Positions 9,752 through 63,778 of a stretch of DNA of 64,000 bases are shown piece by piece. Origin of the DNA: Nitrospirales bacterium (GTDB lineage Bacteria > Nitrospirota > Nitrospiria > Nitrospirales > UBA8639); contig OY820905.2 of NCBI GenBank assembly GCA_963555755.3, positions 4,384,001-4,448,000 of the forward strand, read 5' to 3'. A program made the position numbers and the translations under genes. Numbering within the stretch: position 1 is the stretch's first letter; each line of letters begins with the position of its first letter. Below the pieces are notes generated by a model, which was given only the letters and a program-made list of their open reading frames with translations, was not told where the DNA came from and did not search any database.

Positions 9752-11506
9752 CCTAGAAACCGCAGTTGGATCACAAAAGTCCGCGCAAGCTCTTAGGACC
9801 TGCGAGAAAATAACTTGATCAATCTCGCATCCAATCTTCGGGCCATCTTTGAACGGGCCTCAATCGAAAAACCCTCACCATAGCTGTGCTATGCCTCGAG
9901 TGTTTCGGATCATACAGAAATTATGGTTCTAGGAGTCGCATTCGGATCAATTGCCCAATGAGTGGCGTGAAGCTCAATCCTCGTTTTTCGAGTCCCGGCC
10001 ATTGCCGGTAGCCAAAGACAAAAGGCTCTTCGCGTCACCGGGAGGGTGAATGGGTTGAATAATTCCCCGCCTGTTCCCCCCTTGGGAAAAGGGGGGCTTG
10101 GGGGGATTTTCTGATCCGGAGCAGGCAAGTTCTGCACATTTCTTGCCTCCCACAAAGCGGGTTCCCCCGGCGTGGCTGCCGATCCAACCGAAGGGGCAAA
10201 GCGGGTGCCGGCACCAACGGCCCCCATCCTGACTCGGGGGCGGCCCTAGTCGCTCAGACAGTGCAAGCTTGGTGTGTGAGGGTATGGTTATCGTAAAATC
10301 CCCCCTCCCCCCCTTTTCCAAAGGGGGAGCCTCCCGAGCACCGCTTCCCAAGGGATGTTCTTCCATCACCTGCAGAGGAGAATCTGGCCAACCGACCGAT
10401 ACGGATTGATGAAGCCCCAGAAAAATCTAGAAACCCGGATGGCTCGCCCATGAGCTCCCTGGGGGTCTAGTGGCCACAGATGGGTCCTCTATTATTGGCA
10501 CGGGGTTCCTACAAAATTCATAGAGAACCATAAATTCTGTATGATCCAGTGTTTCCCAATCGTTCCGTCCAAATCCGACCCAAATCTTGGCGCGATATTG
10601 ATCAAGTTATTTTCTCGCAGGTCCTCAGGGTCCGTCACGAAATAACCGGGACAATTGGCCGAGACGATTTTGGAGCGAGCCAAGGAGCGAAGAGCGCGCA
10701 TACCGGGAGTATGGAAGCGATGAGCGACGCCGGCGCAGCCCAAAAGCGTCCGGCCCTCCGGGGAGGCCCATCTTTGGCCCGGGGCGGCGTTGCTCCTCGG
10801 TCACAGAGCCCCGCTAGGCTCCCTCGTCGCGCCTTGCCCCGATCACAAATCTGGGCCTCCCAATTGTCCCGGTTATTTCGTGACGGACCCTTAGCGCACC
10901 TGGCAAAATAAAAAATGTCTTATCACCACCAGGGATTACCCCCCACTCTTGTCATTTCGGGAATAAATGCCAAAAAGTGTTGGGAAAGTTACAAGGAAGT
11001 TCTTCGGTGACAACACGTTACCCTAGAAACGGCAGTTGGGCGCAAAAAAGCCGTGTAAGCTATTGGTGTGCATGGTGAAATAAAAAAAGTCGCAGTCACC
11101 TTCGTGGTGATGGGACATTTTTTTATTTTGCCAGGTGCGCCAAGAGCTTGCGCGGACTTTTGTGATCCAACTGCCGTTTCTAGGGTTACGCATCTTTGTG
11201 TTGAAAGGGTTTAACAAAGGGATGCGGTGATGAGAAAGATGACAGGTGCCTCTCACGCCAAAGTCTCATGAAGACGGCTCCTAATGCGTATTCTCGATGG
11301 TATGAGTATCTCCAACCAAGATTAAAAACCAACACTATTTGGCATTTATTCCCATTTCGACCCTTGGGAGAAATCTGTGGTTCGGCAGAAGGGAGATTTC
11401 TCCCAAGGGTCGAAATGACAGACCCGAGGTGACCACGACTTTTTTTATTTCACCATGCACACCAATAGCTTACACGGCTTTTTTGCGCCCAACTGCCGTT
11501 TCTAGG
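9752..11506. mobile_element. nested MITE stack B[C[N], D, I[J[B]]]
   Basis: Outer B flanked by TTGAA/TTAAA; C 9796-10624; N 9907-10547 (8-bp TSD AGTGTTTC); D 10628-10890; I ~10950-11420; J 10959-11353 (TSD ATTTC); inner B 11022-11184 (TSD GTTAC). Confidence 0.85.
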
Positions 11507-11569
11507 TTAAAGCGTTGAGTGAGGCGGAATATTCGTCAGGGGGGCAGGACCGGGGTGATCAGAATGGCC

Positions 11570-11906
11570 TATTGAATAATAGGCAAATCTTAAAAATTCC
11601 GTTCACCTGTGACTTATCTTATGAAATGCCGAGAGCAACAGGGGATGTTCAAAAAGGTGCGCTCAGCCAGATGGTCTCCAGGCTTCCCATCTGACTTTCC
11701 CAGGGGCTCTGCCCCTAGGACGGCCCAAACAGCAGGGCCTGTGACCCCTCGAAGGGGGAACACCCCCTTCGAACATCCCCCCCACCGAGTGGTACTGACT
11801 ACTCGGTGGGCAAGGCCGCAGGCGCTTTGGCGCGCGGAGCGTACGGGCGAGTACGTGAGCACGACAAAGGGCCGAGAACGCCGCTGACGCCCTTTTTCAA
11901 CATCCC
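11570..11906 (+). mobile_element. long-form MITE A carrying a multi-hairpin insert
   Basis: A leader plus A core interrupted at CAGC^AAGG by about 140 bp (11668-11810). Confidence 0.75.
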
Positions 11907-12515
11907 TTAGAAAAAATCCATTTGAACCGGTTTGGCCGTAGACGGCGAAGGCTGGCTGTCTTCTTTGGACATGTCATCCAGAATCTGTTTGAGCTTTTGA
12001 AAGTCTTCGCGGAGCGGGGTCATGAGATTTCCCTGGTGCAGGGCGGCGGCTGGATGCAATAAAGGGAAGAGAATAAAGTCGGACAACCGAAATATTTGGC
12101 CGCGAACTTTGGTAATTCCAATTTTTCTTTCCAGCAATGTCTGCATGGCAAAGTTTCCGAGCGAGCACACCAGCTTGGGTTTGATGATCTGAATCTGCTG
12201 AAGCAAAAATGGTTTGCAGGTCTCGATTTCATCCGCTTGGGGATTGCGGTTATTGGGAGGCCGGCATTTGATGACATTGGCAATGTAAATTTCGGCACGA
12301 GACAGTCCGACGGATTCGAGCAGTTCCGTCAATAACTTCCCCGCCGCCCCCACAAACGGAACTCCCTGTTTGTCTTCATAAAATCCCGGGGCTTCGCCCA
12401 CAAACATTATAGACGCGTGCGGATTGCCCGTTCCAAAGACAACCTGTGTGCGCCCTGATTCAAGCCGACAAGCCTGGCATTCGCGTAATGATTGATCTAA
12501 TTCATCGAGATTCAT
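11907..12515 (-). CDS. udg: uracil-DNA glycosylase, family 4
   Basis: CQACRL, VGEAPG, KCRPP and HPAA motifs. Confidence 0.95.
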   Translation of the reverse strand: MNLDELDQSLRECQACRLESGRTQVVFGTGNPHASIMFVGEAPGFYEDKQGVPFVGAAGKLLTELLESVGLSRAEIYIANVIKCRPPNNRNPQADEIETCKPFLLQQIQIIKPKLVCSLGNFAMQTLLERKIGITKVRGQIFRLSDFILFPLLHPAAALHQGNLMTPLREDFQKLKQILDDMSKEDSQPSPSTAKPVQMDFF

Positions 12516-12549
12516 AGAGTCGCATCATAGGAAGCGGAGTTTCGGGTTG

Positions 12550-13896
12550 TCAATGACGCTTGTACAACTGGTTGATCATGGTTTGTGCGCACATATTCCC
12601 ACTGGCGATGGCGCTTTCCATTTCGGTCGAGGCTCCCGTGTCCGTCCAACTTCCCGCGAGGAAAAAATTGCGGATCGGGGTTTGATTGGAAGGTCGGGAC
12701 CATTCGGTTCCCGGCATGTCGGGCACAAAACCCAATGGTTGCCGGACGATGTGATAGTGGTGGAGAAGCTCTGGGTTTAAAAACGTTTGATCTGGAAAGA
12801 CGTTTTGGAGAGTTTCAACCGCACAGGCTTTGATCCGTTCGTCCGTCTCTGAGAGGAAATCGGTGTCCCCAGTTGATACGCAGGAAAGCAGAGTGGCACG
12901 GCCCTGCGATGTGTGAGTCGGACGGCACAGCGTCCAGGAAAACCGGCCGTCATGAAGGATGAGTCGAGGTGTGTTGATCGTGTGGTCCGAGATCGCATTG
13001 AAGGTCATCCTAGGAGTAACGGTGGTGTGATTTATCTGATGAAAGGATGAATATCGGGCGAGTAAACGTTCGGGGAGAAACGAGGACAACGTCGTCGGGT
13101 GGACCGCCGCGATATACGAGTCAGCCGTGTAGAGGGTTCCGTTGGATGCACTGACGCCTGTGATCTGTTCTGTCCCAGCTTGGAGGAGTTCAATGGCTGG
13201 AATGCGATGAATGGTCATACCTTGTTGTTCGAGTTGTGTGATTAGGGATTTCACGAGCAAGGTTGAAAGTTGCGGTAAGGGAGTTATCCGCGGGCTGTGA
13301 TGTCGGGATTGGAAAAAGACACGGGTCAACATGGTTGTGAAATTGCCAGCACGAGTGTGCGAAAGGCTTGTTCCTATGAGAAATCGGCATAACGGATCCC
13401 AGATCATTTTTTGAACAGGATGGGTTTGCCCGATACTGGTCAGCCAGGATTCAGCAGATTGCAGATCCAGGGAGCTCGGCAGGACGGTTGCTCCCTCCCA
13501 CACTTTCTCCAGGTAATTGAGAAGGCGCCAACGCTGGCGATACGGAAGAGCCGAAAACGTTGAGATGCCCCACAGGGTATGCCACGGGGCTGGGAGGGGA
13601 GGGGTTGGAAATCGAGCGAGCGTTGAGGACGCGGTGTTACATTCAACAGATATCCGTTTCCAGTTTGATTCTTGTTTCGATATTCCCAAGTCTCGCAATA
13701 ACGAATCAGTATGTGTGTGAGGACCATACAAGACCAAAGGGTCTGACGTTTCATTCGGAGGGGTGGGGGAAACGGGTGTTTCGTGAAGGTTATTGTTCGT
13801 CTTGAGAATGGTGACTGTGAAATCAGCAGCACAAAGCTGCCAGGCTGTGACTAATCCCGCCAGCGTATCGCCGAGGATCAGAGCATGGGGTTTCAT
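12550..13896 (-). CDS. hpnE: HpnE-like FAD-dependent hydroxysqualene dehydroxylase
   Basis: LPAPWH and FLAGSWTDTG...MESAIASG motifs; overlaps hpnD by ATGA. Confidence 0.8.
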   Translation of the reverse strand: MKPHALILGDTLAGLVTAWQLCAADFTVTILKTNNNLHETPVSPTPPNETSDPLVLYGPHTHTDSLLRDLGISKQESNWKRISVECNTASSTLARFPTPPLPAPWHTLWGISTFSALPYRQRWRLLNYLEKVWEGATVLPSSLDLQSAESWLTSIGQTHPVQKMIWDPLCRFLIGTSLSHTRAGNFTTMLTRVFFQSRHHSPRITPLPQLSTLLVKSLITQLEQQGMTIHRIPAIELLQAGTEQITGVSASNGTLYTADSYIAAVHPTTLSSFLPERLLARYSSFHQINHTTVTPRMTFNAISDHTINTPRLILHDGRFSWTLCRPTHTSQGRATLLSCVSTGDTDFLSETDERIKACAVETLQNVFPDQTFLNPELLHHYHIVRQPLGFVPDMPGTEWSRPSNQTPIRNFFLAGSWTDTGASTEMESAIASGNMCAQTMINQLYKRH

Positions 13897-14783
13897 CGTC
13901 TCATGCTAAATCGATTAGTGAGTGAGGTGCGAAGCCAACTGCTGATGGCGATGAGAATGCGTAGGGGCGTGGATAAACTGATTCGAGATTCAAACACGGC
14001 GTAGTTGGAGTGTTGGATGCGAGTGAGAATTCGGAAATACACGCCGCGCATGATTTCTGCTGCGAGCAGGGATTGCCGATCGATTCGGGACAGGGTGTCA
14101 TAGATCGCTTGGGCTTTGTCGTAAAATGCATGGGCTCGGGTGGCTTCGAACTGCATGAGCTCAAGAAATTCTGATGAGTTCGTTTTCGCGAACAGTTGCT
14201 GCTCGGTGTACTTGAATCTCGCCAGATCTTCTTGTGGCAAATAAATACGCTGACGGTCGGCATCGGCTCCAACATCTCGTAAAATATTCGTGAGTTGAAA
14301 GGCGACTCCAAGGTTGATGGCATACTCCTGAGCCCGTGGGTCTTGGGTGCCAAATACCTTGAGACAGATCAATCCTACGATCGACGCGACACGATAACAG
14401 TAGGGATAGAGTTCATCGAAGGTGGCGTATCGTGTGTGCGTTAAATCCATTTCCATGCCGGTCACGAGTTCTTGCAGGTACTCTTCGGGGATCCCAAGCT
14501 GTTTGACATGGGCGGCTAAGCTTATGGTCACCGGGTATTGAGGGGTGCCCTGATAGACGGCCTTAATCTCCTGTCGCCACTGAGAGAGTTGCTCCTGGGG
14601 TTTCGTGCCTGGGGGCGGATCATCAACTGCATTATCGACTTCGTGGCAGAAGGTATACACGGTATACATGGCCTCCCGGCGGAATCGAGGGAGGAAGTAA
14701 AATGAATAATAGAAATTGCTTCCACTCGCTTTGGTCTTCGCGGTGCAATATGCGTGTGCTTCTTCAGCAGTCATGTGGGCCAT
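13893..14783 (-). CDS. hpnD: presqualene diphosphate synthase HpnD
   Basis: SGSNFYYSF, YCYRVASIVG and QLTNILRDVGAD motifs; start may be TTG 14789. Confidence 0.88.
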   Translation of the reverse strand: MAHMTAEEAHAYCTAKTKASGSNFYYSFYFLPRFRREAMYTVYTFCHEVDNAVDDPPPGTKPQEQLSQWRQEIKAVYQGTPQYPVTISLAAHVKQLGIPEEYLQELVTGMEMDLTHTRYATFDELYPYCYRVASIVGLICLKVFGTQDPRAQEYAINLGVAFQLTNILRDVGADADRQRIYLPQEDLARFKYTEQQLFAKTNSSEFLELMQFEATRAHAFYDKAQAIYDTLSRIDRQSLLAAEIMRGVYFRILTRIQHSNYAVFESRISLSTPLRILIAISSWLRTSLTNRFSMRR

Positions 14784-14790
14784 AGTCAAA

Positions 14791-15302
14791 GAACCTGAGA
14801 TAAACTAACTTGGACAATATCGCGCCAAGATTGGGGTCGGATTTGGACGGAACGATTGAGAAAGACCCGAGGCATAGCACAGCTATGTTGAGGGTTTGTC
14901 GATTGAGGCCCGTTCAACCTAGAAACAGCAGTTGGGCGCAAAAAAGCCGTGTAAGATATTGGTGTGCATGGTGAAATACAAAAAGTCGTGGTCACCTCGG
15001 TGGTGATAAGACATTTTTGTATTTTGCGAGGAGCCTGTCCGAGATTAGCGATCGTGACGAGGGGGGGCTGGTTTGAGTCAGATGTTTCGATCGTTTGAGG
15101 CGAATAGTGGTGACTATTTAACGAGAAGGATCGAAAGATCTGGCCAAATCCAGCGCACCCGCAGTAGATCGGTCTAATCTTGGACAGGCTCCTTGGTGCG
15201 CCAAGAGCTTGCGCGGACTTTTGTGATCCAACTGCTGCTTCTAGGTTCAATGATGGCCCGAAGATTGGATGCGAGATGTCCAAGTTATTTTCTCTCAGGT
15301 CC
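14791..15302. mobile_element. nested MITEs C[B[E]]
   Basis: B 14918-15245 with TSD TTCAA inside C; E 15031-15191 inside B. Confidence 0.88.
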
Positions 15303-15402
15303 TTAGTTCGTTGATTTTTGATCGGGGGGTTATTGCCCATACTCGGTTCGAGGATTGTAACGAAAGTTGTGGAGGGAGAAAAGACTTCTGGGAGCAGGGA
15401 TA

Positions 15403-15616
15403 GGCTGAAGGCTGAAGAAGGCTGAAGGCTGAAGGCTAAAGGCTAAAGGCTGAAGCCTACCACTCAAATGCCTGACGTTTTGTATGATCCCGCATGCTTG
15501 CCTCCTCAAAGCCTTCAGCCTTCAGCCTATCCTTACATATATGCCTGACGTTTTATAAGATCCCGCATGCTTGCCTCCTCAAAGCCTTCAGCCTTCAGCC
15601 TTCTTCAGCCTTCAGT
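15403..15616. repeat. GCTGAAG/CTTCAGC inverted heptamer arrays with a ~60-bp internal duplication (related to family M)
   Basis: ATGCCTGACGTTTT...CCTTCAGCCT occurs at ~15468 and 15541. Confidence 0.8.
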
Positions 15617-16185
15617 CTCGACTGGGTTTTGAGTTGATGCTGACCGATCCATCCTGATGCGCCCGACTTGGTATGGACCAGGTAGATCCATGCATTATTG
15701 ACGAGGGCGCCATCTAAAATCGTGAGGAGCTCTCCGGCTTTGACGGAGGGGCCAGGTTGCTTCCCTTGAGCATCACCAGTCAGTTTTAAAGATGATGGTC
15801 CTGAAGGTTTGGCCATCACCATCACAAGCTGACCTTCTTGAAACGATGGCATTGGAGGTTGGGATGTTACAGCTGTGTTGGTTCCGTCAGGGCCGGGAAT
15901 GTTCGAGCCCGCATCGGAGTCCGGGGCCTTGGAACCCGGGGCTGTGATCATGCTGGTGAGGGACGAGAGTGCTCCTGGATCCATCATGAAATACCCTACG
16001 CTTGCAACCACGAGAAGCAGGAGAATCAAAACCAGCGGGCGTCGACTCGGCGGCTTGGGATCCAGATCATCCATGTCATCCAAACTATCGTCAAAATCAA
16101 GGTCCTGGTCTGCGTCCTTGGCAAAAAACAGGGGCCAAGGGCTGAAGGAACCTGGATCCAATGACATGGGAAACGTTGGATTCAT
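15595..16185 (-). CDS. membrane-anchored protein with a C-terminal SH3-like domain
   Basis: Acidic N-terminus, one TM helix, Pro/Ser linker, GELLTIL...WIYLV...GWI motif; start uncertain. Confidence 0.7.
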   Translation of the reverse strand: MNPTFPMSLDPGSFSPWPLFFAKDADQDLDFDDSLDDMDDLDPKPPSRRPLVLILLLLVVASVGYFMMDPGALSSLTSMITAPGSKAPDSDAGSNIPGPDGTNTAVTSQPPMPSFQEGQLVMVMAKPSGPSSLKLTGDAQGKQPGPSVKAGELLTILDGALVNNAWIYLVHTKSGASGWIGQHQLKTQSRLKAEEG

Positions 16186-16432: not shown

Positions 16433-16612
16433 GGACCTGAGAGAAAATAACTTAAACAATTTCGCGCCAAGATTTGGGTTAGATTTGGACGGAACGATTG
16501 AGAAAAACCCGAGGCATAGCACAGCTATGTTGAGGGTGTTTCGATTGAGGCCCGTTCAACGATGGCCCGAAGATTGGATGCGAAATTGTTCAAGTTATTT
16601 TCTCTCAGGTCC
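16433..16612 (+). mobile_element. MITE family C (180 bp)
   Basis: TIR GGACCTGAGAGAAAATAACTT; TSD TAA. Confidence 0.9.
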
Positions 16613-16789
16613 TAAAGGGTGATGGGAAAAATTGGAACCCTCTTTTCCTCACAGATCACGCATGATGGGTTACGCATCACGACTGCTTTTCCCTTTCCCG
16701 TTTCTTCACTGATGACGACTCAAATTGCTTGCATAACGGTCTGTCCTTATGCAAAATGCACATCACACACGGTGATCGTCGTGTCATCT

Positions 16790-24000: not shown

Positions 24001-24507
24001 GAGCTTGTCAGAAATTAGCGATCGTCAGATCCCTTCTGTCATTTCGACCCTTGGGAGAAATCTCTCTGTTAGGGTTGGAATGCCTTGGCAGGTGTGGCAG
24101 GAACGGGGAGATTTCTCTCAAGGGTCGAAATGACAAAAGGAGGGGACCTCAAGGTTGCAGGAGCCTGTCCGAGATTAGCGGTCGTCATCTGGGGCTGGTT
24201 ACTAAAGGGCACCTCTACAAACCAGGCATTTTTTGTGAGGGCAAGGAAGCCGCGCGCGGAAAACCGGAGTGTATGGGCGAATACATGAGGATGTGAGCAC
24301 GCGACTGACGCCGCCATCACGGAAAAGGACGGTTTTTAGAGGTGCCCTAAGGGCTCGCGCAAGAATAACTTCCCATGTTTGGGTGTTGAGGCACCTGTCT
24401 GGCAAGGCGCGAGGACTGCGCATACTCCTCGTATGGAAAGGACGAGCAACGCCGTCAGACGGGATGGATCGACGCCCAAACATGGGAAGTTATTCTTGCG
24501 CGAGCCC
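24001..24507. mobile_element. repeat cluster: E ends, I, G and F
   Basis: E left ends at 24001 and 24162; I 24037-24134; G 24207-24347; F 24351-24507 with TSD TAA. Confidence 0.85.
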
Positions 24508-25864: not shown

Positions 25865-26044
25865 GGACCTGAGAGAAAATAACTTGGACAATATCGCGCC
25901 AAGATTTGGGTCAGATTTGGACGGAACGATTGAGAAAAACCCGAGGCATAACACAGCTATGTTGAGGGTTTTTCGATTGAGGCCCGTTCAAAGATGGCCC
26001 GAAGATTGGATGCGAGATTGTCCAAGTTATTTTCTCTCAGGTCC
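25865..26044 (+). mobile_element. MITE family C (180 bp) in the lptD 5' end
   Basis: TIR GGACCTGAGAGAAAATAACTTGGACAAT; TSD TTA. Confidence 0.9.
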
Positions 26045-28289: not shown

Positions 28290-28295
28290 CACTAG

Positions 28296-28584
28296 GAGCC
28301 TGTCCGAGATTAGCGATCGTCACGAGGATGTGCTGGTTTGAGTCAGATATTTCGATCGTTTGAGGCGAATAGCTGGACTATTCAACGAAAACGGGGAAGG
28401 TTCAAAAAGGCCGTCCAGCAAGGCCGCAGGGCTTTTGGCGCGCGGAGCGTACATGGAGTACGTGAGCACGCCAAAAGCCTGAGAACGCAGCTGGCGGCCT
28501 TTTTCAACATTCCCCGAAAAGGATCGGAAAATCTGGCCAAATCCAACGCATCAGCAGTAGATCTGTCTAATCTTGGACAGGCTC
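28296..28584 (+). mobile_element. nested MITEs E[A]
   Basis: E TIR GAGCCTGTCC.AGATTAG; A 28392-28516 flanked by AAAA. Confidence 0.88.
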
Positions 28585-37566: not shown

Positions 37567-37699
37567 CAGACGTGATGCGTGAAGCGTGATCCGTGAAGCG
37601 TAGGGGGGGACGATTTTCCTATATTTACGCATCACGCATTACGTATCACGGGTCACGATTTTTGAACAACCACTGTTGCTATGAAGACGAGGAGTTTCC

Positions 37700-43353: not shown

Positions 43354-43989
43354 ATGTTCCCATCGCGTATCGTGACAGTGTGGATCGGGTTGGCATTAGC
43401 CTTGGCCTTGTTCGTGGTGATACCAGTCTACGGAACAGGCAGTGAGAAACAGGCTTCCCCATCTGGCACTCAGGCTGAGAATAGCCAGCCATATGAGGCT
43501 CGGGCTGAGGCTCATGCATCAATGGCTTCTTCCCAAGCGGCGGAACCTCAGGCGTCGTTGCCTGAAATGACGTTGGTGGAGAAGCTCCAGGCTCGTTTGC
43601 AACAGCTCGAAGAACGGGAACAACGTATCCGAGATGACGAACAACGGCTTGGGGTTTTGCGTCGAGACCTTGAACAAATGGCGACACGGCAAGAAAAGGC
43701 GATTGCGGAAGCGATGGCTATTCGCGAAGCGCAAAACGAATCAGGAGGAGAAGACGATGGGTCCCGAAAATCGTTGAAACACTTGATCAAAGTGTATGAA
43801 GCCATGGACCCTGACGAAGCCGCTCTGCGGATTAGCAAGATGAAGGAACCGTTAGCGTTGGATATTCTCGCGGGCATTAAAGAGAAAAAGGCTGCGGGGA
43901 TGTTGGCGGGGATTGAGCCAGTGAAAGCTGCGAAGTTAACAGAAGGGCTACGGTATTACCATCAAAGGAAACGAACGGCGACCCCCTAG
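43354..43989 (+). CDS. MotE-like (MgtE N-terminal-like) flagellar protein
   Basis: Signal/TM, coiled coil, LIKVYEAMDPDEAA...AAKLT. Confidence 0.75.
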   Translation: MFPSRIVTVWIGLALALALFVVIPVYGTGSEKQASPSGTQAENSQPYEARAEAHASMASSQAAEPQASLPEMTLVEKLQARLQQLEEREQRIRDDEQRLGVLRRDLEQMATRQEKAIAEAMAIREAQNESGGEDDGSRKSLKHLIKVYEAMDPDEAALRISKMKEPLALDILAGIKEKKAAGMLAGIEPVKAAKLTEGLRYYHQRKRTATP

Positions 43990-44150
43990 GAGCCTGTCCG
44001 AGATGAGCGATCGTCACGAGGTTGTGCCGGTTTGAGTCAGATTTTTCGATCGTTTGAGGCGAATAGTGGTGACTATTTAACAAAAACAATCGGAAAATCT
44101 GGCCAAATCCGGCGCAACCGCAGTAGATCGGTCTAATATCGGACAGGCTC
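43990..44150 (+). mobile_element. MITE family E (161 bp)
   Basis: TIR GAGCCTGTCCGA; starts directly after the C-TAG stop. Confidence 0.9.
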
Positions 44151-44193
44151 CTCACCTGATAATGTCTACATCGTCGTAAGAGCGTGATGTGAT

Positions 44194-47892: not shown

Positions 47893-48033
47893 GGGCACTT
47901 CTACAAACCGTCCTTTTCCGTGATGGCGGCGTCAGCCGCGTGCTCATATCCTCATGTATTCGCCCATACACTCCGGTTTTCCGCGCTCGGCTTCCTTGCC
48001 CTCACAAAAAATGCCTGGTTTGTAGAGGTGCCC
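47893..48033. mobile_element. MITE family G (141 bp)
   Basis: TIR GGGCAC.TCTACAAACC; other copies at 24207 and 61465. Confidence 0.88.
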
Positions 48034-48179: not shown

Positions 48180-49061
48180 CCGAGAAATGGCAGTTGGGCG
48201 CAAAAAAGCTGTGTAAGATATTGCTGTGCATGGTGAAATACAAAAAGTCGTGGTCACCCTAGGGTTCGCGCAAGAATACCTCCCCCGGTTTGGGCGTCGA
48301 TCCATCCTGTTTGGCGGCGTTGCTCGTCCTTTCCATACGAGGAGTATGCGCAGTCCTCGCGCCTTGCCAGACAGGTGTCTCAGCACCCAACCAGGAGAAG
48401 GTATTCTTGCGCGAACCCTTAGTGGTGATGAGACCTTTTTGTATTTTGCGAGGAGCCTGTCCGAGATTAGCGATCGTGACGAGGGGGGGCTGGTTTGAGT
48501 CAGATGTTTCGATCGTTTGAGGCGAATAGTGGTGACTATTTAACGAAAACGGGGAATGTTCAAAAAGGCCATCCAGCAAGGCCGCAGGGGTTTTGGCGCG
48601 CGGAGCGTACACGGAGTACGTGAGCACGCCAAAAGCCCGAGAACGCAGCTGGGGGCCTTTTTCAACATTCCCCGAAAAGGATCGAAAGATCTGGCCAAAT
48701 CCAGCGCACCCGCAGTAGATCGGTCTAATCTTGGACAGGCTCCTTGGTGCGCTTAGGGTCCGTCACGAAATAACCGGGACAATTGGGAGGCCCAGATTTG
48801 TGATCGGGGCAAGGCGCGACGAGGGAGCAGAGCGGGGCTCTGTGACCGAGGAGCAACGCCGCCCCGGGCCAAAGATGGGCCTCCCCGGAGGGCCGGACGC
48901 TTTTGGGCTCCGCCGGCGTCGCTCATCGCTTCCATACTCCCGGTATGCGCGCTCTTCGCTCCTTGGCTCGCTCCAAAATCGTCTCGGCCAATTGTCCCGG
49001 TTATTTCTCGCAGGTCCTAAGAGCTTGCGCGGACTTTTGTGATCCAACTGCCATTTCTAGG
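48180..49061. mobile_element. nested MITE stack B[F, E[A], D/C chimera]
   Basis: B TSD TTGAA; F 48262-48418; E 48453-48742; A 48550-48674; D/C 48756-49017. Confidence 0.88.
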
Positions 49062-49218: not shown

Positions 49219-49301
49219 AGATTTCTCCCAAGGGTCGAAATGACAAGAGAGGGTCGAAATGACAAGAGAGGGTCGAAATGACAAGAGAGGGTCGAAATGA
49301 C
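49219..49301. repeat. 20-bp tandem repeat (GGGTCGAAATGACAAGAGA.) from the family I end
   Basis: About 3.5 identical units. Confidence 0.9.
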
Positions 49302-51754: not shown

Positions 51755-51906
51755 AAAGAACGTGAAGCGTCATGCGTGAAGCGTAAAGCGTATAAGAACA
51801 AGAATAATGAAAATCAAGGAAGACGGACAAAAGGTCATGGTGATTTATTCTTCACGCATGACGCATGACGCATGACGCATCACAATCTAAGAATAACGAG
51901 GGAAGA

Positions 51907-53558: not shown

Positions 53559-54288
53559 GGACCTGAGAGAAAATACCTTGGACATCTCGCATCCAAAACA
53601 TAGCTGTACTATGCCTCGGGTGTTTTTCAACCTAGAAACAGCAGTTGGATCACAAAAGTCCGCACAAGCTCTCAGGGTCCGTCACGAAATAACCGGGACA
53701 ATTGGCCGAGACGATTTTGGAGCGAGGCAAGGAGCGAAGAGCGCGCATACCGGGAGTATGGAAGCGATGAGCGACGCCGGCGGAGCCCAAAAGCGTCCGG
53801 CCCTCCGGGGAGGCCCATCTTTGGCCCGGGGCGGCGTTGCTCCTCGGTCACAGAGCCCCGCTCTGCTCCCTCGTCGCGCCTTGCCCCGATCACAAATCTG
53901 GGCCTCCCAATTGTCCCGGTTATTTCGTGACGGACCCTTAGCGCACCTGATAAAAGACAAAAAGGTCTCATCACCACTAAGGGTTCGCGCAACAATAACT
54001 TTCCCTGTTTGGGTGCTGAGACACCTGTCTGGCAAGGCGCGAGGACTGCGCATACTCCTCGTATGGAAAGGACGAGCAACGCCGCCAGACGGGATGGATC
54101 GACGCCCAAACAGGGAAAATTATTGTTGCGCGAGCCCTAAGGTGACCACGACGTTTTGTCTTTCACCATGCACCCCAATAGCTCGCACGGCTTTTTTGCG
54201 CCCAACTGCAGTTTCTAGGTCCAATCGTTCCGTCCAAATCCAACCCAAATCTTGGCGCGATATGTCCAAGGTATTTTCTCTCAGGTCC
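53559..54288. mobile_element. nested MITE stack C[B[D,F]]
   Basis: B 53631-54219 (TTCAA/TCCAA); D 53675-53937; F 53981-54137 (TSD TAA). Confidence 0.88.
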
Positions 54289-56158: not shown

Positions 56159-58258
56159 ATGGCGACCTCAACGACGATGACACAAGAAGGCACCCCTCTC
56201 GGGTCGTATAGCGATTTCTTGTTGCCGTTGGGCGTCATTGGCATGTTGATGTTGATGCTTCTCCCGATCCCGCCGGTGCTCCTCGATTTGTGTCTGTCGT
56301 TCAGCATTACCCTGTCGATTCTTATATTGCTGGTGACGATGCATGCGAGACGTCCGATTGATTTTTCCGTGTTTCCTTCAGTCCTGTTGTTGGTGACGCT
56401 CTTTCGGTTAGGCCTGAATATTGCGTCAACGCGTGTCATTCTCCTCAATGGCCATGAGGGCATTGGCGCAGCCGGCGAAGTCATTAAATCGTTTGGGGGG
56501 GTTGTTGTCGGTGGCAATTTTGCAGTGGGAATCGTGGTGTTTTCCATCTTAGTGATCATCAATTTCATTGTGATCACGAAAGGGGCTGGCCGAATCGCGG
56601 AAGTGGCCGCGCGGTTTACGTTGGATGCCATGCCTGGAAAGCAGATGAGCATTGACGCGGATCTCAATGCCGGACTGATCGATGAGGCCACGGCTCGTCG
56701 TCGTCGTGAAGATATTGCCGAAGAAGCCGATTTTTATGGGGCCATGGATGGTGCGAGTAAATTCGTTCGTGGTGATGCGATCGCCGCCATTATTATTATC
56801 CTGATCAACATCGTAGGTGGGTTGGCGATTGGGGTGCTGGAACACGGCATGCCGTTAGCCGAGGCGGCTCGTACTTTTACCCTTCTGACTGTGGGTGATG
56901 CTCTGGTGGGACAGATTCCGGCCCTCATTATTTCAACCGCTGCCGGTATCATCATCACACGAGCCGCCTCATCTGCAAATTTAGGAGAGCAAATCACCAA
57001 CCAAATTCTGGTCAACCCCAATTTGATTGGTATGGTAGCCGGCATTCTTTTCCTATTGGGACTCACTCCTGGCCTACCACATTTTGCCTTCTTGCTGGTA
57101 GGGAGCCTGGTTGCTGGGCTGGCCTATTTTCTTAAAGATCAACAGAAAAAGATGGCTGACACAGAGAAAGCCGCGGTTCCTGCCAAAGGTGAGGAAGCCG
57201 CGAAAACGGATGCCCTCGACGTCGTGACATCCCCTGACTTACTTGAACTTCATGTGGGGTATGGGCTGGTTCCGTTGGTGGATGTCGCACAGGGGGGGGA
57301 GCTTCTTGAGCGCATTCGCGGGATTCGCCGGCAGACTGGCCAGGAGCTGGGTTTGGTCGTTCCGCCCGTGCATATTCGGGATAACCTTCAGCTGCGGCCC
57401 AACGAATACAGCATCATGTTGAAAGGGGTGCAGGTGGCCAAAGGCGAAGTCGTGCCGAGGCATTTGCTGGCCATTAATCCGGGTCAGGCCACGGGTGATT
57501 TGGAAGGGAAGCCGACACAAGATCCGTGCTTTGGGCTACCGGCACTTTGGATTTCGACCCAAAACAAAGAGAAGGCTCAGGTCGAAGGGTATACGGTTGT
57601 CGATTGTGGCTCGGTGATTGCAACACATCTGACTGAAATCATTCGAGCAAATGCTCATGACCTGATTGGGCGTCAAGAGGTACAGAGTTTGCTAGACAAT
57701 ATTGCGAAGACTCATCCCAAGGTTGTGGATGATTTAATCCCCACCTTGTTGCCACTGGGAAGTGTGGTGAGAATTTTACGAAATCTTCTGAAAGAGCGGG
57801 TGTCTATTCGTGATTTGCGCACGATTCTCGAAAGCGTGGCGGATTATGCCCCACAGGTGAAAGACCCTGAAACCTTGACGGATTATGCACGGCAAAGTGT
57901 GGGTCGGACCATCACCAGTCAATTCACCAACCCGGACGGGTTGCTCCCGGTGATCAGTTTAGATCCGGCTCTAGACCGACGGTTGGTTGACGCCCTGCGG
58001 CCAAGTCCGACAGGGGAAGTCCAGTCTATGAGCCCACCCTTCGTGAATGCGTTCCTGGAAGGCGTGCGTCGTGCCATTGAACGCGTCATTTCTCGAGGTT
58101 ATCAACCCGTGTTGCTCTGCTCTCATGGAATTCGGGCCCAGGTGTATCGCCTGGTGGCACCGGGTGTTCAGGCATTGACGGTGTTATCCCCGAATGAGAT
58201 TGACGTCAAAGCCAAAATTCAAGCCATTGAAGTGGTGAGGATTCCAGATGAAGCTTAA
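56159..58258 (+). CDS. flhA: flagellar export protein FlhA
   Basis: RFTLDAMPGKQMSIDADL and GAMDGASKFV motifs. Confidence 0.97.
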   Translation: MATSTTMTQEGTPLGSYSDFLLPLGVIGMLMLMLLPIPPVLLDLCLSFSITLSILILLVTMHARRPIDFSVFPSVLLLVTLFRLGLNIASTRVILLNGHEGIGAAGEVIKSFGGVVVGGNFAVGIVVFSILVIINFIVITKGAGRIAEVAARFTLDAMPGKQMSIDADLNAGLIDEATARRRREDIAEEADFYGAMDGASKFVRGDAIAAIIIILINIVGGLAIGVLEHGMPLAEAARTFTLLTVGDALVGQIPALIISTAAGIIITRAASSANLGEQITNQILVNPNLIGMVAGILFLLGLTPGLPHFAFLLVGSLVAGLAYFLKDQQKKMADTEKAAVPAKGEEAAKTDALDVVTSPDLLELHVGYGLVPLVDVAQGGELLERIRGIRRQTGQELGLVVPPVHIRDNLQLRPNEYSIMLKGVQVAKGEVVPRHLLAINPGQATGDLEGKPTQDPCFGLPALWISTQNKEKAQVEGYTVVDCGSVIATHLTEIIRANAHDLIGRQEVQSLLDNIAKTHPKVVDDLIPTLLPLGSVVRILRNLLKERVSIRDLRTILESVADYAPQVKDPETLTDYARQSVGRTITSQFTNPDGLLPVISLDPALDRRLVDALRPSPTGEVQSMSPPFVNAFLEGVRRAIERVISRGYQPVLLCSHGIRAQVYRLVAPGVQALTVLSPNEIDVKAKIQAIEVVRIPDEA

Positions 58259-59597
58259 ACGATTTGAAGCATTAACTCTTCAGGAAGCATTTTTCGCCGT
58301 GAAAGCCGAATTGGGCTCGGATGCCGTGATCGTCTCGACCCGGCGTATCAATAAAGGTGGAGGTTTTCTTGGGTTGCTCAGTCAACCCATGATTGAAGTC
58401 ACGGCTGCGGTTGATCGAGGGGTGGTGGCCAAAGAACCTGCCAAAGAACTTGCCAAAGAACCTGATCATCGCCAACGCCGGTCACAGGAAACAGTGATGC
58501 CAACCGTTGAACCGGAAACGGTTTCGTCGTGGTATGAACCCCCCATCGAAGCCCAGCAGAGGCAGGCCCCCTCTTTTGGTGAACATCTGAAAGTGGCGGC
58601 GTTACTCGACCCGGTAAGCCAACAGCTCGCCGCCCTCCGTGAGGAAATGAAAGAGTTACGAAGTGTACGGTCTGAGGCCGATACCGGAATTGGTCCCCTT
58701 CGTCAGGAACTCGAAACGTTCCGCACGTTCATGGGAGACATGCTGGCGGATCGGGCATCACAACGGTTGGCTTCGCTTCCGAAAGATCTGAGGGCCTACC
58801 ATGAAGTCCTCGTGACTGCAGGAATTACCCCTTCCCTGGCTGCCAATCTTGTGCGGACGGTTGGGGAAACCCTCGGAACAGGGGAGGGCATTCGGGACGA
58901 AACCGTGGCGGAATTATTGCGGGAGCAAATGGAGAAGGCCATTTCGGTGTCCGGTCCTTTGGCGACACCTGGCGGTTTGCAAAAAGTCGTCATGCTCGTG
59001 GGGCCTACTGGAGTCGGGAAAACCACGACCATTGCTAAACTCGCCAGTCAGTTCACGCAAGGACCCATGCGGATGAAAACTGTCGTGGTGACATTGGATA
59101 CGTATCGAGTGGCCGCTGTCGAACAACTTCGAGTCTATGCTCGAATCTTGAAAGTTCCCGTTGAAGTAGCCGTGACACCAGAGGAATTGCCGGCTTGCGT
59201 GGCTCGGCATCCGGATGCCGGGTTGGTGCTGGTTGATACGGCTGGCCGCAGTCCGCGTGATCCGGCAGGGGCACGAGAACTGGCGGCGATTGCGGAACAA
59301 AAAATGGCACTCGAAACCCATTTAGTGCTGTCTGCGCCCACAGACTTGGCCGTGCAAGAAGATATTGTGCGTCGGTATAGCAGCATCCCCGTGCATCGAT
59401 TGTTGCTCACAAAACTCGATGAAATGCCCCAATTGGGCCGCTTATTCAATTTGATTCATCAAACCGGGCTTCCGCTGTCGTATCTGTCCATGGGACAACG
59501 GGTTCCAGAAGATTTGGAACAAGCGACGCGAAAATCCATCGTGGATCGAATCGACCTGTTTTCCGCATGGGAGCAGGTGTCAGCGAAAGTCGCGTAA
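58248..59597 (+). CDS. flhF: SRP-type GTPase FlhF
   Basis: GPTGVGKTTTIAKLA, DTAG, TKLDE and GQRVPED motifs. Confidence 0.95.
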   Translation: MKLKRFEALTLQEAFFAVKAELGSDAVIVSTRRINKGGGFLGLLSQPMIEVTAAVDRGVVAKEPAKELAKEPDHRQRRSQETVMPTVEPETVSSWYEPPIEAQQRQAPSFGEHLKVAALLDPVSQQLAALREEMKELRSVRSEADTGIGPLRQELETFRTFMGDMLADRASQRLASLPKDLRAYHEVLVTAGITPSLAANLVRTVGETLGTGEGIRDETVAELLREQMEKAISVSGPLATPGGLQKVVMLVGPTGVGKTTTIAKLASQFTQGPMRMKTVVVTLDTYRVAAVEQLRVYARILKVPVEVAVTPEELPACVARHPDAGLVLVDTAGRSPRDPAGARELAAIAEQKMALETHLVLSAPTDLAVQEDIVRRYSSIPVHRLLLTKLDEMPQLGRLFNLIHQTGLPLSYLSMGQRVPEDLEQATRKSIVDRIDLFSAWEQVSAKVA

Positions 59598-59727
59598 TGC
59601 GTGAAGCGTGAAGCGTCATGCGTGAAGGGTAAAGGGAGAAACACTGTGGTATCTTTTTTTACGCATGACGCATGACGCATCACGCATGACGCATCACGCA
59701 TGACGCATCACGCATGACGCATCACGA
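59592..59727. repeat. inverted heptamer arrays (GCGTGAA ... ACGCATC/ACGCATG)
   Basis: Same type at ~37570-37658, 38005-38146, 42737-42820, 51761-51883 and 53155-53278. Confidence 0.9.
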
Positions 59728-59772
59728 CTTCGCAGTGAGTACATCAACGTTTGATTTATAAGGACACACACC

Positions 59773-60654
59773 ATGATCCCCCAGATTGATCAAGCGAGCG
59801 GGCTACGAGCACGAGCGAGTGCTCAACCAACCCTTCCCCCAGTCCAAGTCATCGCGGTGAGCTCGGGGAAAGGAGGAGTCGGGAAAACCAATATTGTCGC
59901 CAACATTGCCGTGGCCGGAGCGAAACAGGGTACGCGCGTCATGATCATGGATGCGGATCTGGCGCTGGGGAATCTCGATGTGCTGCTTGGTCTCACACCT
60001 GTCTATTCGTTAGAAGATGTCATCGCGGGCCGACAGACATTGGAAGAGATTGTGGTGGAAGGGCCGGCGGGGGTGCAGATTCTTCCGGCCACGTCAGGGG
60101 TACAAGATCTGACGGCCTTAAGTCGAGACCAACAACTTCATCTGCAAACACAATTTTTGAATTTGGCTACCCCGCCAGAATTGCTGCTGATTGATTGTGC
60201 CGCCGGCATTTCCGCGAATGTTCTCTATTTTAGCCTGGTGGCCCATGAAGTCCTCGTGGTGGTCACCCCGGAACCGACATCCCTCACGGATGCGTATGCC
60301 TTGATTAAGGTTTTATCCACTCGCTACCGACAAAAACGTTTTAGAATTTTGATCAACATGGCGAAACAGGTTCGTGAGGCCAAGGACGTCTTTCGGAAAT
60401 TGAGTAAGGTGACGGACCGATTTCTGAGCCTCTCATTGGATTTCGCCGGATGGGTACCCTTGGATGACCATTTGCCCATGGCCGTGTGCCAGCAACGAGC
60501 GGTCGTGGAAGCTTTTCCCAAGGCCCCGTCGAGTCGTGCGTTGTCGGACCTCATGGCGACGTTGCTTGGATGGCGATCGGATCATCCCATGGATGGCGGG
60601 CTCCAGCTATTTGGCCCATCGGTTCTTTGGACACCCACACAGGAAGGAGCGTGA
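59773..60654 (+). CDS. flhG: MinD-like ATPase FlhG/FleN
   Basis: SGKGGVGKT, DADLALGN and PEPTSLTDAYALIK motifs. Confidence 0.94.
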   Translation: MIPQIDQASGLRARASAQPTLPPVQVIAVSSGKGGVGKTNIVANIAVAGAKQGTRVMIMDADLALGNLDVLLGLTPVYSLEDVIAGRQTLEEIVVEGPAGVQILPATSGVQDLTALSRDQQLHLQTQFLNLATPPELLLIDCAAGISANVLYFSLVAHEVLVVVTPEPTSLTDAYALIKVLSTRYRQKRFRILINMAKQVREAKDVFRKLSKVTDRFLSLSLDFAGWVPLDDHLPMAVCQQRAVVEAFPKAPSSRALSDLMATLLGWRSDHPMDGGLQLFGPSVLWTPTQEGA

Positions 60655-60660
60655 GGGACT

Positions 60661-61458
60661 ATGAAATCTACTGTCTCGGAAGCCCAAGCCCAGCAGAGGA
60701 TTCACGCTCGGTTTAAGACGGGAGAAGCCGCCAAATCCGTTGGTATTCGCGGAGAAGAACGGGAAGGGATGATCAAGGATTTTGTGCCGGTCATTAAGTA
60801 TATGGCCCTTCGCTTGGCCATGCGTGTTCCGGCGGGCTTAAATGTTGAGGACCTGATTAGCGCAGGAACCGTCGGGCTTTTAGATGCCCTCAGCAAGTAT
60901 GATCCTGGACGGGAAGTGAAGTTTCGGACCTATGCGGAATTTCGTATTCGTGGCGCGATGCTTGATGAAATGCGTGCGATGGACTGGGTGCCTCGGTCGG
61001 TTCGTGAACGCATGGGTCGCATCCAACATGCCGCCAATGAATTTACCAAGCGAAAAGGTCGAACGCCGACCGAACAGGAGCTGGCTACGGAATTAGGGGT
61101 TGATGCCAAAGAAGTGGATGACACGCTGCTGCAAGCCAAAGGGGCCGTCGTATTAAGCCTCGATGATTTGGGCACCTCGGACGATGACGCCCATTCCATT
61201 TTGGATGCCCTGGCTGATACGGAGCAACCAAGTCCTCTTGAATCCTTGTTGTCCGAAGATACCAGAAAAGTGCTCGCCGATGCGATTGATCGACTGCCAG
61301 AGCGGCAACGATTGGTTCTGACGCTCTATTATTTTGAAGAACTGACTATGAAAGAAGTGGGGACGTTGTTGAACGTGACGGAATCCCGCATTTGCCAATT
61401 ACATGCGCAGGCTATGGTCCGGCTTAAAGCTCAACTTAGTACTAAACTGTCTCGTTAA
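60661..61458 (+). CDS. fliA: RNA polymerase sigma-28
   Basis: RIRGAMLDEMRAMDWVPRS and ELTMKEVG..LNVTESRICQ motifs. Confidence 0.96.
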   Translation: MKSTVSEAQAQQRIHARFKTGEAAKSVGIRGEEREGMIKDFVPVIKYMALRLAMRVPAGLNVEDLISAGTVGLLDALSKYDPGREVKFRTYAEFRIRGAMLDEMRAMDWVPRSVRERMGRIQHAANEFTKRKGRTPTEQELATELGVDAKEVDDTLLQAKGAVVLSLDDLGTSDDDAHSILDALADTEQPSPLESLLSEDTRKVLADAIDRLPERQRLVLTLYYFEELTMKEVGTLLNVTESRICQLHAQAMVRLKAQLSTKLSR

Positions 61459-61464
61459 AGATAC

Positions 61465-61605
61465 GGGCACCTCTACAAACCGTCCTTTTCCGTGATGGCG
61501 GCGTCAGCCGCGTGCTCACATCCTCATGTATTCGCCCATACACTCCGGTTTTCCGCGCACGGCTTCCTTGCCCTCACAAAAAATGCCTGGTTTTTAGAGG
61601 TGCCC
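61465..61605. mobile_element. MITE family G
   Basis: Near-identical to 47893-48033. Confidence 0.88.
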
Positions 61606-61901
61606 ATACACCTTTCTTCTCTGATGGGGCTCTTCATTCCTTTGTGGCTCTTTTCCTACCTGCCATAATCTCGACATCCAAATATCGAATTTCGAAACAA
61701 ATCGGAAGCCAAAACTCCAATGTTTCAAACGGGTCATGCCGACTAATTGAGACATGACTTTGGTTCTTTACAATTTGAACATGTGAATGTGTTTCGGACA
61801 GAGATTCGAGTTTTGGATGTATTCAACGGTAAGGAGTTACAGCCCAGATGTCCCTCCCTGTTTCTCATTCCCTACCCCTCCCTATTTTCTATTTCCTCCA
61901 T

Positions 61902-61928
61902 TAAGTTCGATCATACTAATCCCGAGAG
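61902..61928 (+). promoter_or_regulatory. possible sigma28 promoter
   Basis: TAAG-N15-CCCGAGAG resembles TAAA-N15-GCCGATAA. Confidence 0.35.
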
Positions 61929-62037
61929 GTCAGTGAACTCGCTCACTTCAATTTTGCCATTTGGATACCAAAGAGAACGGGTTTTTCATTGGCGGGAACA
62001 TACCATTCAGTAGCACGATACTGCCGAAGGAGCTGCG

Positions 62038-63264
62038 ATGATTGAGCCAACCAATTTGACTTCTGAGAAACTGGGTGTTGTTGGAGAAGTTTCTACTCCG
62101 ACACCACCGGCCACGATTTTACTCGTGGATGATGAAAAGCTTGCCCGCATGGTCACCCGGAAACGACTAGAACGGTTGGGCCATCACATACTTGAAGCGG
62201 AACATGGCAAGCAAGCGTTGGCCGTGCTTGAAGAACATGGCGTTGATCTTATTATCTCGGACTGGATGATGCCGGAAATGGACGGGCCGACCTTTTGTGA
62301 AGCTGTCAAAGCCCATGCAAAATTTCGGTTAATACCCATCATTTTGATGACCGCGTTGGACCAACCTGCGCAAATTGCCGAAGGGTTACAGCGAGGAGCG
62401 GACGACTTTTTAACTAAAGCCGCGTCCGATCAGGAATTGACGGCTCGTGTCACTGCGGGGCTGCGCACGCATCGATTGATTGGCGAACTTGAACAATCCT
62501 ATGCCGTCATTGCAGAAAAACAAAGCGAAATGGAGGCTGAGGTGAAGTCTGCGACACTGTTTGTGACCTCCTTGCTTCCCAAGGCTGGTGAGGTGGCCCC
62601 TGGTGTTCAGATGGATTGGGAATTCATTCCGTCCCTGGGCCTAGGTGGCGATTTATTTCAAGTCACACCGTGGGGTGACGACTATCTTGGGCTGGCCATT
62701 TTGGACATGTCCGGGCACGGGATTGGGCCTTCCCTGCGGGCTGTGTCATTGGCCCTGACGTTTCGGGCGGAACATATGGCACAAACCCATCCCACCTATG
62801 ATCCTGGCGAAATCGTGGCCACCCTCAATAAGGAAAATCCTATGACCCAGGATGGAGAGTATTTCACCATTTGGGTCGGAGCGCTGCATTTGCCAACCGG
62901 CCGTCTCCGGTACGCGACCGCCGGGCATCCTGCCGTGGTGCTGACACGAAATGGACAACCCCTGCAGCAAATTGGTGCAAAGACCTGGCCCATTGGATTT
63001 GGGATTGAGGAAGTGTACGTCAGTGAGGAAATCTTTTTGTTGCCTGGTGATCGATTGTATATGTTCAGCGACGGGATCTATGAAGTCTTCTCTCCAGACG
63101 ACGAGTTATGGGATCGCAAGGGGTTTGAAAGTGCCTGTCAAACCATTCATGCCAAGCCCTTAAAAAAAGGTTTGCAATGGGTGGTTCAACAAGCCAAAGC
63201 CTGGCAACGCCAAGAAACTTTTGGCGATGACGTGGCGCTGGTTGGTCTTGAAATACTGTCGTAA
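62038..63264 (+). CDS. response regulator with a PP2C/SpoIIE phosphatase domain (RsbU-like)
   Basis: REC (DWMMP), GGD, DMSGHG, AGHP, SDG and DD motifs. Confidence 0.93.
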   Translation: MIEPTNLTSEKLGVVGEVSTPTPPATILLVDDEKLARMVTRKRLERLGHHILEAEHGKQALAVLEEHGVDLIISDWMMPEMDGPTFCEAVKAHAKFRLIPIILMTALDQPAQIAEGLQRGADDFLTKAASDQELTARVTAGLRTHRLIGELEQSYAVIAEKQSEMEAEVKSATLFVTSLLPKAGEVAPGVQMDWEFIPSLGLGGDLFQVTPWGDDYLGLAILDMSGHGIGPSLRAVSLALTFRAEHMAQTHPTYDPGEIVATLNKENPMTQDGEYFTIWVGALHLPTGRLRYATAGHPAVVLTRNGQPLQQIGAKTWPIGFGIEEVYVSEEIFLLPGDRLYMFSDGIYEVFSPDDELWDRKGFESACQTIHAKPLKKGLQWVVQQAKAWQRQETFGDDVALVGLEILS

Positions 63265-63451
63265 GGATAGTGAGTAATAAGGTTCGTCGCAGAAATACGT
63301 AGGACAAATCTGAAAATCGAATATCGAAATCCGAAACACATTCAAATGACCAAATTCACAATCACCAAAACGTGGGAAGACAGTTGATACGATCTTGAAG
63401 ATCGAACGCACGAATTGGCCCGCTCTGCCTGCATGATCTGTTTGAACCTAG

Positions 63452-63778
63452 GAGCCTGTCCCAGATTAGACTGATCTACTGCGGATGCACTGGATTTGGC
63501 CAGACATTTCGATCCTTTTCGTTGAACCTAGAAACAGCAGTTGGATCACAAAAGTCCGCGCAAGCTCTTGACGCACCTGGCAAAATACAAAAAGTCTCAT
63601 CACCACGGAGGTAACCACGACTGTTTGTATTTCACCATGCACGCCAATATCTTACACGTCTTTTTTGCGCCCAACTGCCGTTTCTAGGTTGAATAGTCCC
63701 ACTATTCGCCTCAATCGATCGAAATATCCGACTCAAACCAGCACATCCTCGCGACGATCGCTCATCTCGGACAGCCTC
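63452..63778. mobile_element. nested MITEs E[B], inserted into a B-type end
   Basis: E TSD CTAG (63448-63451, 63779-63782); B 63527-63688 with TSD TTGAA. Confidence 0.88.

Follow-up and report, generated by a model that had tools for sequence, protein, structure and literature searches.

Bacterial MITEs (miniature inverted-repeat transposable elements) usually form long stem-loops that pair from end to end with mispairs (PMC2229807; this and the other papers cited here are represented by their available sections), and rod-shaped examples such as ERIC, YPAL and bcr1 are already known. Rod-type families have been catalogued (PMC2267715), and in the available part of that catalogue we found no mention of G-U pairs, orientation or covariation. 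Searches of the literature, with most subscription papers and supplements outside their coverage, returned nothing on one-strand wobble bias or strand asymmetry in MITEs, and nothing since 2015 that joins MITEs with covariation. In integron attC sites G·T pairs (1.24 versus 0.39 per site) are skewed to the strand that is functional as single-stranded DNA (ssDNA; PMC5027507). Here we describe three repeat families, B, C and E, from a 64,000-nucleotide stretch of a Nitrospirales genome (C1:4384001-4448000 of 4.62 Mb; hereafter the window), in which they lie between flagellar and housekeeping genes. A first-pass annotation, made from the letters of this DNA alone, depicted the three families as full-length imperfect rods with G-T pairs biased to one strand, and proposed that selection acts on a single-stranded fold of that strand. 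Our own reading, advanced tentatively, is that B, C and E are MITEs whose predicted rod interior is maintained on one strand, most likely as RNA.

Strand asymmetry of the rods and its propagation

The family references were derived from the stems quoted in the first-pass annotation: B at 11022-11184 (163 bp, with a 5-bp GTTAC duplication, its + strand being the folding strand that carries the G·T pairs and purine mismatches), C at 16433-16612 (180 bp, + strand, with a TAA duplication) and E at 15030-15192 (163 bp, + strand, its ends matching an IS1182 left end). Genome-wide blast gave 277 pieces of B, of which 68 are full-length copies, 167 of C (90 full-length) and 183 of E (47 full-length), the copies within a family being mostly 85-99% identical. 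As RNA folding programs accept G-U pairs and not A-C pairs, G·T and A·C were counted in a strand-neutral way, each sequence being aligned, under symmetric scoring, to the reverse complement of itself. In such alignments 95-96% of each consensus falls in paired columns, and for the B copy at 11022-11184 the folding energy is -105.7 kcal/mol (z -16.2) on the + strand against -77.4 kcal/mol (z -12.1) on the minus strand. The rods are thus real over their full length, and the comparison of folding energies that the annotation had proposed as a check favors the G·T strand. The gap between strands is 19-31 kcal/mol with RNA parameters and 8-12 kcal/mol with DNA parameters, the G·T strand folding better with the latter too in 68/68 B, 89/90 C and 46/47 E copies.

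Inspection by eye located all seven stem pairs quoted in the annotation, with G·T on the strand stated. The bias itself holds for B and C and falls short of significance for E on this count: the consensus ratios of G·T to A·C are 10:1 (p 0.012), 9:1 (p 0.021) and 4:3 (p 1.0) respectively, and G·T exceeds A·C in 68/68, 90/90 and 31/47 copies. The imperfect pairs do recur across copies as described, but with copies this alike, descent from common masters explains the recurrence, and a recurrent mismatch counts as one event rather than many. Beyond the G-T pairs, the folding strand also carries an excess of purine-purine over pyrimidine-pyrimidine mismatches (B 6:1, C 8:0, E 9:2), which in C include three tandem GA/AG mismatches. 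Combining both kinds of mispair yields 16:2 for B (p 0.0013), 17:1 for C (p 0.00014) and 13:5 for E (p 0.096).

Changes at Watson-Crick pairs behave differently when private to one copy and when propagated. Among distinct copies of at least 86% identity (47 B, 77 C, 35 E) the ratio of G·T to A·C is 42:37 for singletons and 20:5 for changes present in at least three copies (Fisher p 0.02). A version of the test on trees of 50 B, 89 C and 40 E copies, weakened by recombination among copies, gives 143:94 on tip branches against 39:8 on internal branches (p 0.0027); for the rod interior alone the figures are 86:58 and 28:5 (p 0.008). Substitutions taken as a whole show no strand asymmetry (among private changes 22 C>T on 99 C and 40 G>A on 149 G, among shared ones 22 and 23 respectively), so that the G·T excess is specific to pair-breaking changes. 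This is what selection predicts and strand-specific damage does not, and strand-specific deamination is accordingly disfavored. It is probable, in our judgment, that selection maintains a one-strand fold, as the annotation had proposed; for B and C the proposal stands, and for E it is supported by the propagated variants only.

Relatives of B extend these observations beyond a single genome. DNA searches of related genomes, our own included and some matches being weak, found C in 8/61, B in 15/61 and E in 13/41, while a covariance model (R1, from an alignment that includes decayed copies) placed B in 4/101 genomes of the class, one of them a new genome outside the family. B was absent from the phages searched. 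The 22-base pattern of the B ends also matches records assigned to Nitrospinota, Gammaproteobacteria, Betaproteobacteria and Elusimicrobiota (80 of more than 83 loci were fetched, and bins may be mislabelled). The gammaproteobacterial versions measure 162-163 bp, with an interior identity of 51-57%, and the betaproteobacterial ones 233-235 bp with an extra arm; the tip TCACC-N5-GGTGA is kept in most relatives. In five betaproteobacterial loci (L121, L122, L152, L160 and L161) B ends and the B tip hairpin accompany an extra arm like the centre of families G and F, and to judge from their sequences these longer elements probably arose by module shuffling within one pair of ends.

We aligned 24 diverse rows, chosen by eye from full-length relatives in Nitrospirota and Gammaproteobacteria. 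In this alignment 92.9% of cells are paired, and two-sided change is seen in 37/69 pairs overall and in 21/28 pairs of the inner helix; none of 500 shuffles reached as high a pairing and slid controls gave 40-47%, figures to be read with the caveat that the structure was derived from the same alignment and that the rows are related. G·T outnumbers A·C in 24/24 rows, inclusive of the gammaproteobacterial rows of 51-57% interior identity, with 5-11 of the 51 interior pairs being G·T, and the internal loops are purine-rich throughout (0.63-0.95 across the rows). Row length is confined to 160-164 bp in 23/24. Columns interchange G-C, G·T and A-T, and some G·T columns are near-fixed, for instance 49/122 with 20 G·T and 4 A-T; the B interior thereby appears to behave like an RNA helix whose columns swap G-C, G·U and A-U. 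One B relative in a Gammaproteobacteria bin (L115:1801-1962) is a perfect palindrome over its outer 69 bp, the copy in L093 of the same bin being imperfect; the L115 palindrome reflects either arm conversion or misassembly.

Mobility and partner insertion sequences

B, C and E have terminal inverted repeats, are shorter than 500 bp and occur in many dispersed copies, and are type II MITEs, that is, non-autonomous miniature transposons, by the definition of PMC10969869. The target duplications measure 5 bp in B, mostly TTNAA (exact in 43/68 copies), 3 bp in C, TAA or TTA (58/90), and 2 bp in E, TA within CTAG (19/47), and the three families insert at one another's target words, which gives rise to nesting. 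An empty site is provided by the X8 and X2 contigs, from which the copy of B at 11022 is missing together with five further bases (168 = 163+5). Insertion either way round is likely a consequence of the symmetry of the targets TTNAA, CTWAG and CTAG.

The ends of E agree in 19/20 and 17/19 bases with the left end of a two-copy element of this genome, whose 462-aa protein scores 375 bits on the IS1182 model (cut-off 270), the IS1182 transposase of the genome being located at C1:2920458-2922130; both E ends resemble this left end more than does the right end of the insertion sequence (IS) itself. The ends of B agree in 16/17 bases with the left end of a 1679-bp frameshifted element flanked by TTTAA and TTCAA in a relative (L228, genome G006), in which three of the four frames tested match the IS1380 model in order (E 5.7e-6, 5e-13 and 1.4e-7), each below the cut-off. 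A 334-bp remnant of this IS1380-type element is present in our genome. The likeness is confined to the ends, as the interiors of B and E have nothing detectable in common with their matching IS. Moreover, the L228 element's own ends agree at only 20/65 positions beyond the terminal repeat and form no rod, which argues that the rod is not IS-derived. From these similarities it is likely that B and E are moved by DDE transposases of end-matched IS, of the IS1380 type for B and IS1182 for E, and C is likely moved in the same way by the DDE transposase of an IS with matching ends. The search for an autonomous partner of C found none in this genome, in plasmids or in 80 metagenome loci with 101 end matches. 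The annotation had argued that cut-and-paste mobility alone would not need a single-stranded fold; duplications, IS-matched ends and the empty site mark B, C and E as ordinary transposase-moved MITEs, and the probable selection on a one-strand fold would operate alongside this mobility.

Several candidate partners were rejected. Plasmid matches to the C ends (E 0.5, inside traG) were taken as chance, and a 2042-bp candidate at C1:2549815 proved to be another IS inserted in a C copy. A 1510-bp unit bounded by family F is a host gene flanked by two MITEs, L123 is a 112-bp MITE variant rather than an IS, and this genome's intact IS1380 elements differ from B in their ends. Searches with PF13701 in five relatives and five genomes matched by the end pattern recovered fragments only, one being the L228 element. 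A head-to-tail E joint, the one such among the joints listed, was seen in X8 only and at single-copy depth, and in the genome one E copy abuts another E end. Two B copies lie at transposase remnants, that at C1:804113 inside one of IS5 type and that at C1:1092207 next to one of IS1380 type, and a C copy at C1:2549953 holds an IS.

About 50 of 122 B-bounded units, counted by eye among those under 1300 bp, are composites of up to 937 bp that occupy different sites with duplications of their own. Many have a copy of G in their tip loop, and all inserts are fold-backs in their own right that leave the host stem intact. As composites spread, the length of the rod and an empty tip loop are dispensable. 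Deletion forms of 40, 66 and 107 bp also occur, those of 40 and 66 bp being palindromic. Six diverged near-perfect palindromes of 40 bp, consisting of B ends only and flanked by 5-bp duplications, lie at C1:1221472, 1261837, 1939565, 2306388, 4021648 and 4582175.

Nature of the fold probably under selection

That the fold under selection is RNA is a reading we adopt with reserve, and it would work as follows. A cognate DDE transposase would mobilize the element in trans, as its ends and duplications suggest, and two opposed pressures may then shape the interior: a need for a one-strand fold, and an instability of perfect palindromes in DNA, to which the existence of 40-, 66- and 107-bp deletion forms points. 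G·T pairs and purine mismatches would leave one strand able to fold and at the same time make the duplex less palindromic, thereby limiting hairpin deletion. A copy transcribed on the folding strand would yield a putative rod RNA, whose tip hairpin (a 5-bp stem and 5-nt loop with a purine-rich internal loop) may bind a putative host factor, and such binding may raise that copy's chance of persistence or of being copied. Random orientation with respect to host genes favors a benefit to the element over one to the host mRNA; with private changes strand-symmetric, and propagated ones favoring one strand regardless of gene direction, the fold seems to be bound up with the success of the element itself. 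The 12 runs listed all consist of assembled contigs; RNA contigs of X1, X2 and X3 span the repeats, contigs of this kind carrying no strand, ends or level. Rfam 15 gave no match in the window at the gathering threshold, and in a relaxed search of 10900-16700 matches fell on other hairpins and none on copies of B, C or E. A C/D-box or kink-turn interpretation of the tip loop was dropped after inspection by eye.

Several observations weigh against this RNA reading. A skew is already present on the tip branches (143:94, p 0.002), so that the contrast between private and propagated changes is one of degree, and purine mismatches show no such contrast (53:52 versus 8:11). The E consensus stands at just 4:3, and a G·T bias is lacking in the neighboring families G (4:5) and H (3:2). 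In most rows of the B alignment the first 22 columns are conserved through the construction of the search pattern. Composites and the six 40-bp miniatures, both bounded by B ends, indicate that an intact 163-nt rod is unnecessary for movement. A benefit acting through host mRNA would predict a sense bias, and on crude calls of open reading frames (ORFs) none was seen. In the terminal repeats, changes on both arms of one and the same copy are frequent (C 9, G 21), and together with the near-perfect palindrome of L115 they imply that copying from arm to arm can yield covariation. Finally, the presence of the skew in attC ssDNA means that the signature by itself cannot separate RNA from DNA.

This last point opens the way to an alternative in which the selected fold is ssDNA: one strand would fold during replication, copy-out transposition or transfer between cells, and, in the manner of attC, pair the ends or recruit a replication-restart or recombination factor. 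The bottom strands of attC carry the same skew of G·T and purines (PMC5027507), the advantage of the G·T strand in B, C and E persists under DNA parameters in nearly every copy (68/68, 89/90 and 46/47), and a filter that acts on propagated lineages, the crossing of phyla by B-type elements and the lack of effect of transcription direction on orientation would all suit ssDNA. Yet the target duplications and the IS1182 and IS1380 ends indicate the duplex chemistry of DDE transposases, and the density of G·T is several-fold above that of attC. Moreover, with origin and terminus placed from GC skew, the folding strand falls on the G-rich sequence of the leading strand (template of the lagging strand) in 28/68 B, 37/90 C and 23/47 E copies, a weak deficit (88/205 pooled, p 0.05) and the opposite of the enrichment expected of exposed ssDNA. 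We regard a selected ssDNA fold as rather unlikely. Unlikely too, and a shade more so, is the absence of any function, whereby the left end of an IS folded back to give the rod, which template switching between arms then preserves, the better-folding strand extruding more often so that A·C mispairs are overwritten and G·T mispairs persist. The proximity of both E ends to the IS left end, the double-changed singletons of the terminal repeats, the 69-bp perfect arm copy of L115 (possibly an assembly artefact), the palindromic deletion forms of 40 and 66 bp and the free movement of composites are all consistent with such an origin, and arm-to-arm copying clearly occurs. It can explain some of the covariation; it explains the fixed positions of mismatches less easily, because conversion should erase mismatches, whereas G·T columns and purine-rich loops stay fixed while neighboring pairs turn over. 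Also difficult for it are the persistence of length (160-164 bp in 23/24 rows) and of the tip hairpin at 51-57% interior identity, and the symmetry of private as against the asymmetry of shared changes.

A benefit to the host, in which copies behind genes would, when in one orientation, adjust how stable the mRNA is by way of RNase III or RNase E, like Correia and ERIC elements, and hosts would retain the lineages concerned, has published precedent (PMC2229807, PMC10969869), and for 48/90 C copies an ORF stop is no more than 60 nt away. However, the targets contain TAA or TAG, which accounts for this location, and beside stops the pooled sense and antisense counts are 42:41. More generally, the orientation bias relative to transcription that the annotation had put forward as a check was not found, the ratios of sense to antisense between tandem genes being 15:19 for B, 29:32 for C and 12:15 for E (pooled p 0.42), and we consider selection at the level of the host very improbable. 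Should the neutral origin be correct, covariation in palindromic repeats would be a poor marker of structured RNA, which matters for searches for non-coding RNAs. A bolder reading, to which we give little credence, is that the rod is a transposase-independent helper, acting as single-stranded RNA or as DNA, whose tip hairpin is read by a conserved host protein and which, carried within the ends of unrelated IS (IS1380, IS1182 and others), boosts the copying of its carrier across bacterial phyla. If true, it would add an unrecognized cis-acting step to DDE transposition. That bacterial MITEs fold over their full length, though transposases require the ends alone, is a long-standing puzzle. E, whose cognate IS1182 is present and intact in this genome, offers a directly testable case.

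Other copies in the window and relation to known systems

The seven families occupy about 3.5% of the chromosome, neighboring families numbering 40 (F), 162 (G) and 122 (H) by genome-wide blast. Only six uninterrupted copies, two each of B, C and E, lie in the window, the others being nested or partial. Besides the three references these are a minus-strand B (63527..63688) seated within a minus-strand E that it splits (63451..63779), a C at 25865..26044 (+, TTA duplication) and an E at 43989..44151 (+) that overlaps a stop codon. The E reference splits a B (14918..15245, +), which as a whole lies in a C (14793..15302, +). A composite B of 589 bp holding F and G (53631..54219, minus) likewise splits a C (53559..54288, minus) that abuts the TAA stop of a reading frame between fliP and fliR. 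An A element splits the E at 28295..28584 (+), and this E-with-A composite, of 290-292 bp, occurs 14 times in the genome. Another E holding A (48452..48743, +) is located in an 882-bp composite B at 48180..49061 (+) with its own TTGAA duplication, which contains G and F as well. Russian-doll composites of this kind (B with G, E, A, F and C), at 48180-49061 and at C1:68940-69875, spread as units; relative to B, in the composites listed, every G and F is reversed and every E and C forward, possibly as a result of single founding insertions. A half copy of B (its positions 1-83) at 11424..11506 (minus) and a broken composite with pieces from B, C and F at 9752..10930 (minus) complete the set.

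Family F (10628-10890, 53675-53937) apparently has, within a single pair of ends, two core-type arms that point opposite ways, owing to which its strands fold about equally (-155.7 versus -160.6 kcal/mol); being branched, it does not lend itself to a mismatch count by self-alignment. Family H (47893-48033) has a 4-bp duplication in 97/122 copies and 12 purine mismatches on its minus strand, its purine strand being slightly sense-biased (39:22, p 0.04 uncorrected). By eye only, the tip hairpins of B, C and E look like those of A, F, G and H. An unannotated Escherichia coli stretch upstream of ucpA (L195:135-200) resembles, also by eye, the centre of H and A, and has no terminal repeats; a 24-nt match between it and the tip of A (E 5) is present in 1380/5426 genomes. 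Intergenic heptamer arrays form inverted blocks (for example ACGCATC/ACGCATG, AGCCTTC and AACCCTG) at 7003-7121, 15402-15618, 37571-37656, 51756-51897 and 59586-59726. An additional short palindromic family, TGTCATTTCGACC...GAGAAATCT, with one arm tandemly repeated, is found at 11355-11420, 24032-24140 and 49220-49300.

The ssDNA (HUH) elements of the IS200/IS605 and REPIN type are not known to duplicate their targets, and their orientation is tied to replication. B, C and E duplicate their targets and have the folding strand on the leading strand in 88/205 copies, which sets them apart from that group. With IS1182 and IS1380, E and B respectively share the terminal 17-20 bp and the target preference. 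The attC sites resemble them in being imperfect palindromes whose G·T pairs and purines cluster on the functional strand, but are co-oriented cassette sites of a tyrosine integrase, while B, C and E are dispersed, randomly oriented, target-duplicating and far richer in G·T (PMC5027507). The bcr1 element of the Bacillus cereus group is reminiscent of B in its length of about 155 bp, its 5-bp direct repeats and its structure-keeping compensatory RNA changes; it is, however, a two-armed cruciform of one species group, in contrast to the single rod of B with its IS-matched ends and its occurrence in several phyla (PMC3184786).

The nearest likeness in general plan is to ERIC/IRU/RU-1, YPAL/RU-2, RU-3, RPE and Correia/NEMIS, which are non-coding elements of 100-200 bp with target duplications and mispaired end-to-end stem-loops; ERIC-type MITEs are also intergenic and often co-transcribed, and their TA duplication is like that of E (PMC2229807, PMC10969869). 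Unlike them, B duplicates 5 bp and C 3 bp, and B and E are tied to the ends of IS1380 and IS1182. Compared by description, ERIC/IRU measures 127 bp with a TA duplication, against 163-180 bp here with TA in E only. For ERIC-type MITEs the available sections of the same two papers report no G·T strand bias and no test of selection. What is added here to the known rod-shaped MITEs is the test of private against shared changes, a link to IS1380 for the cross-phylum family B and an intact IS1182 partner for E.

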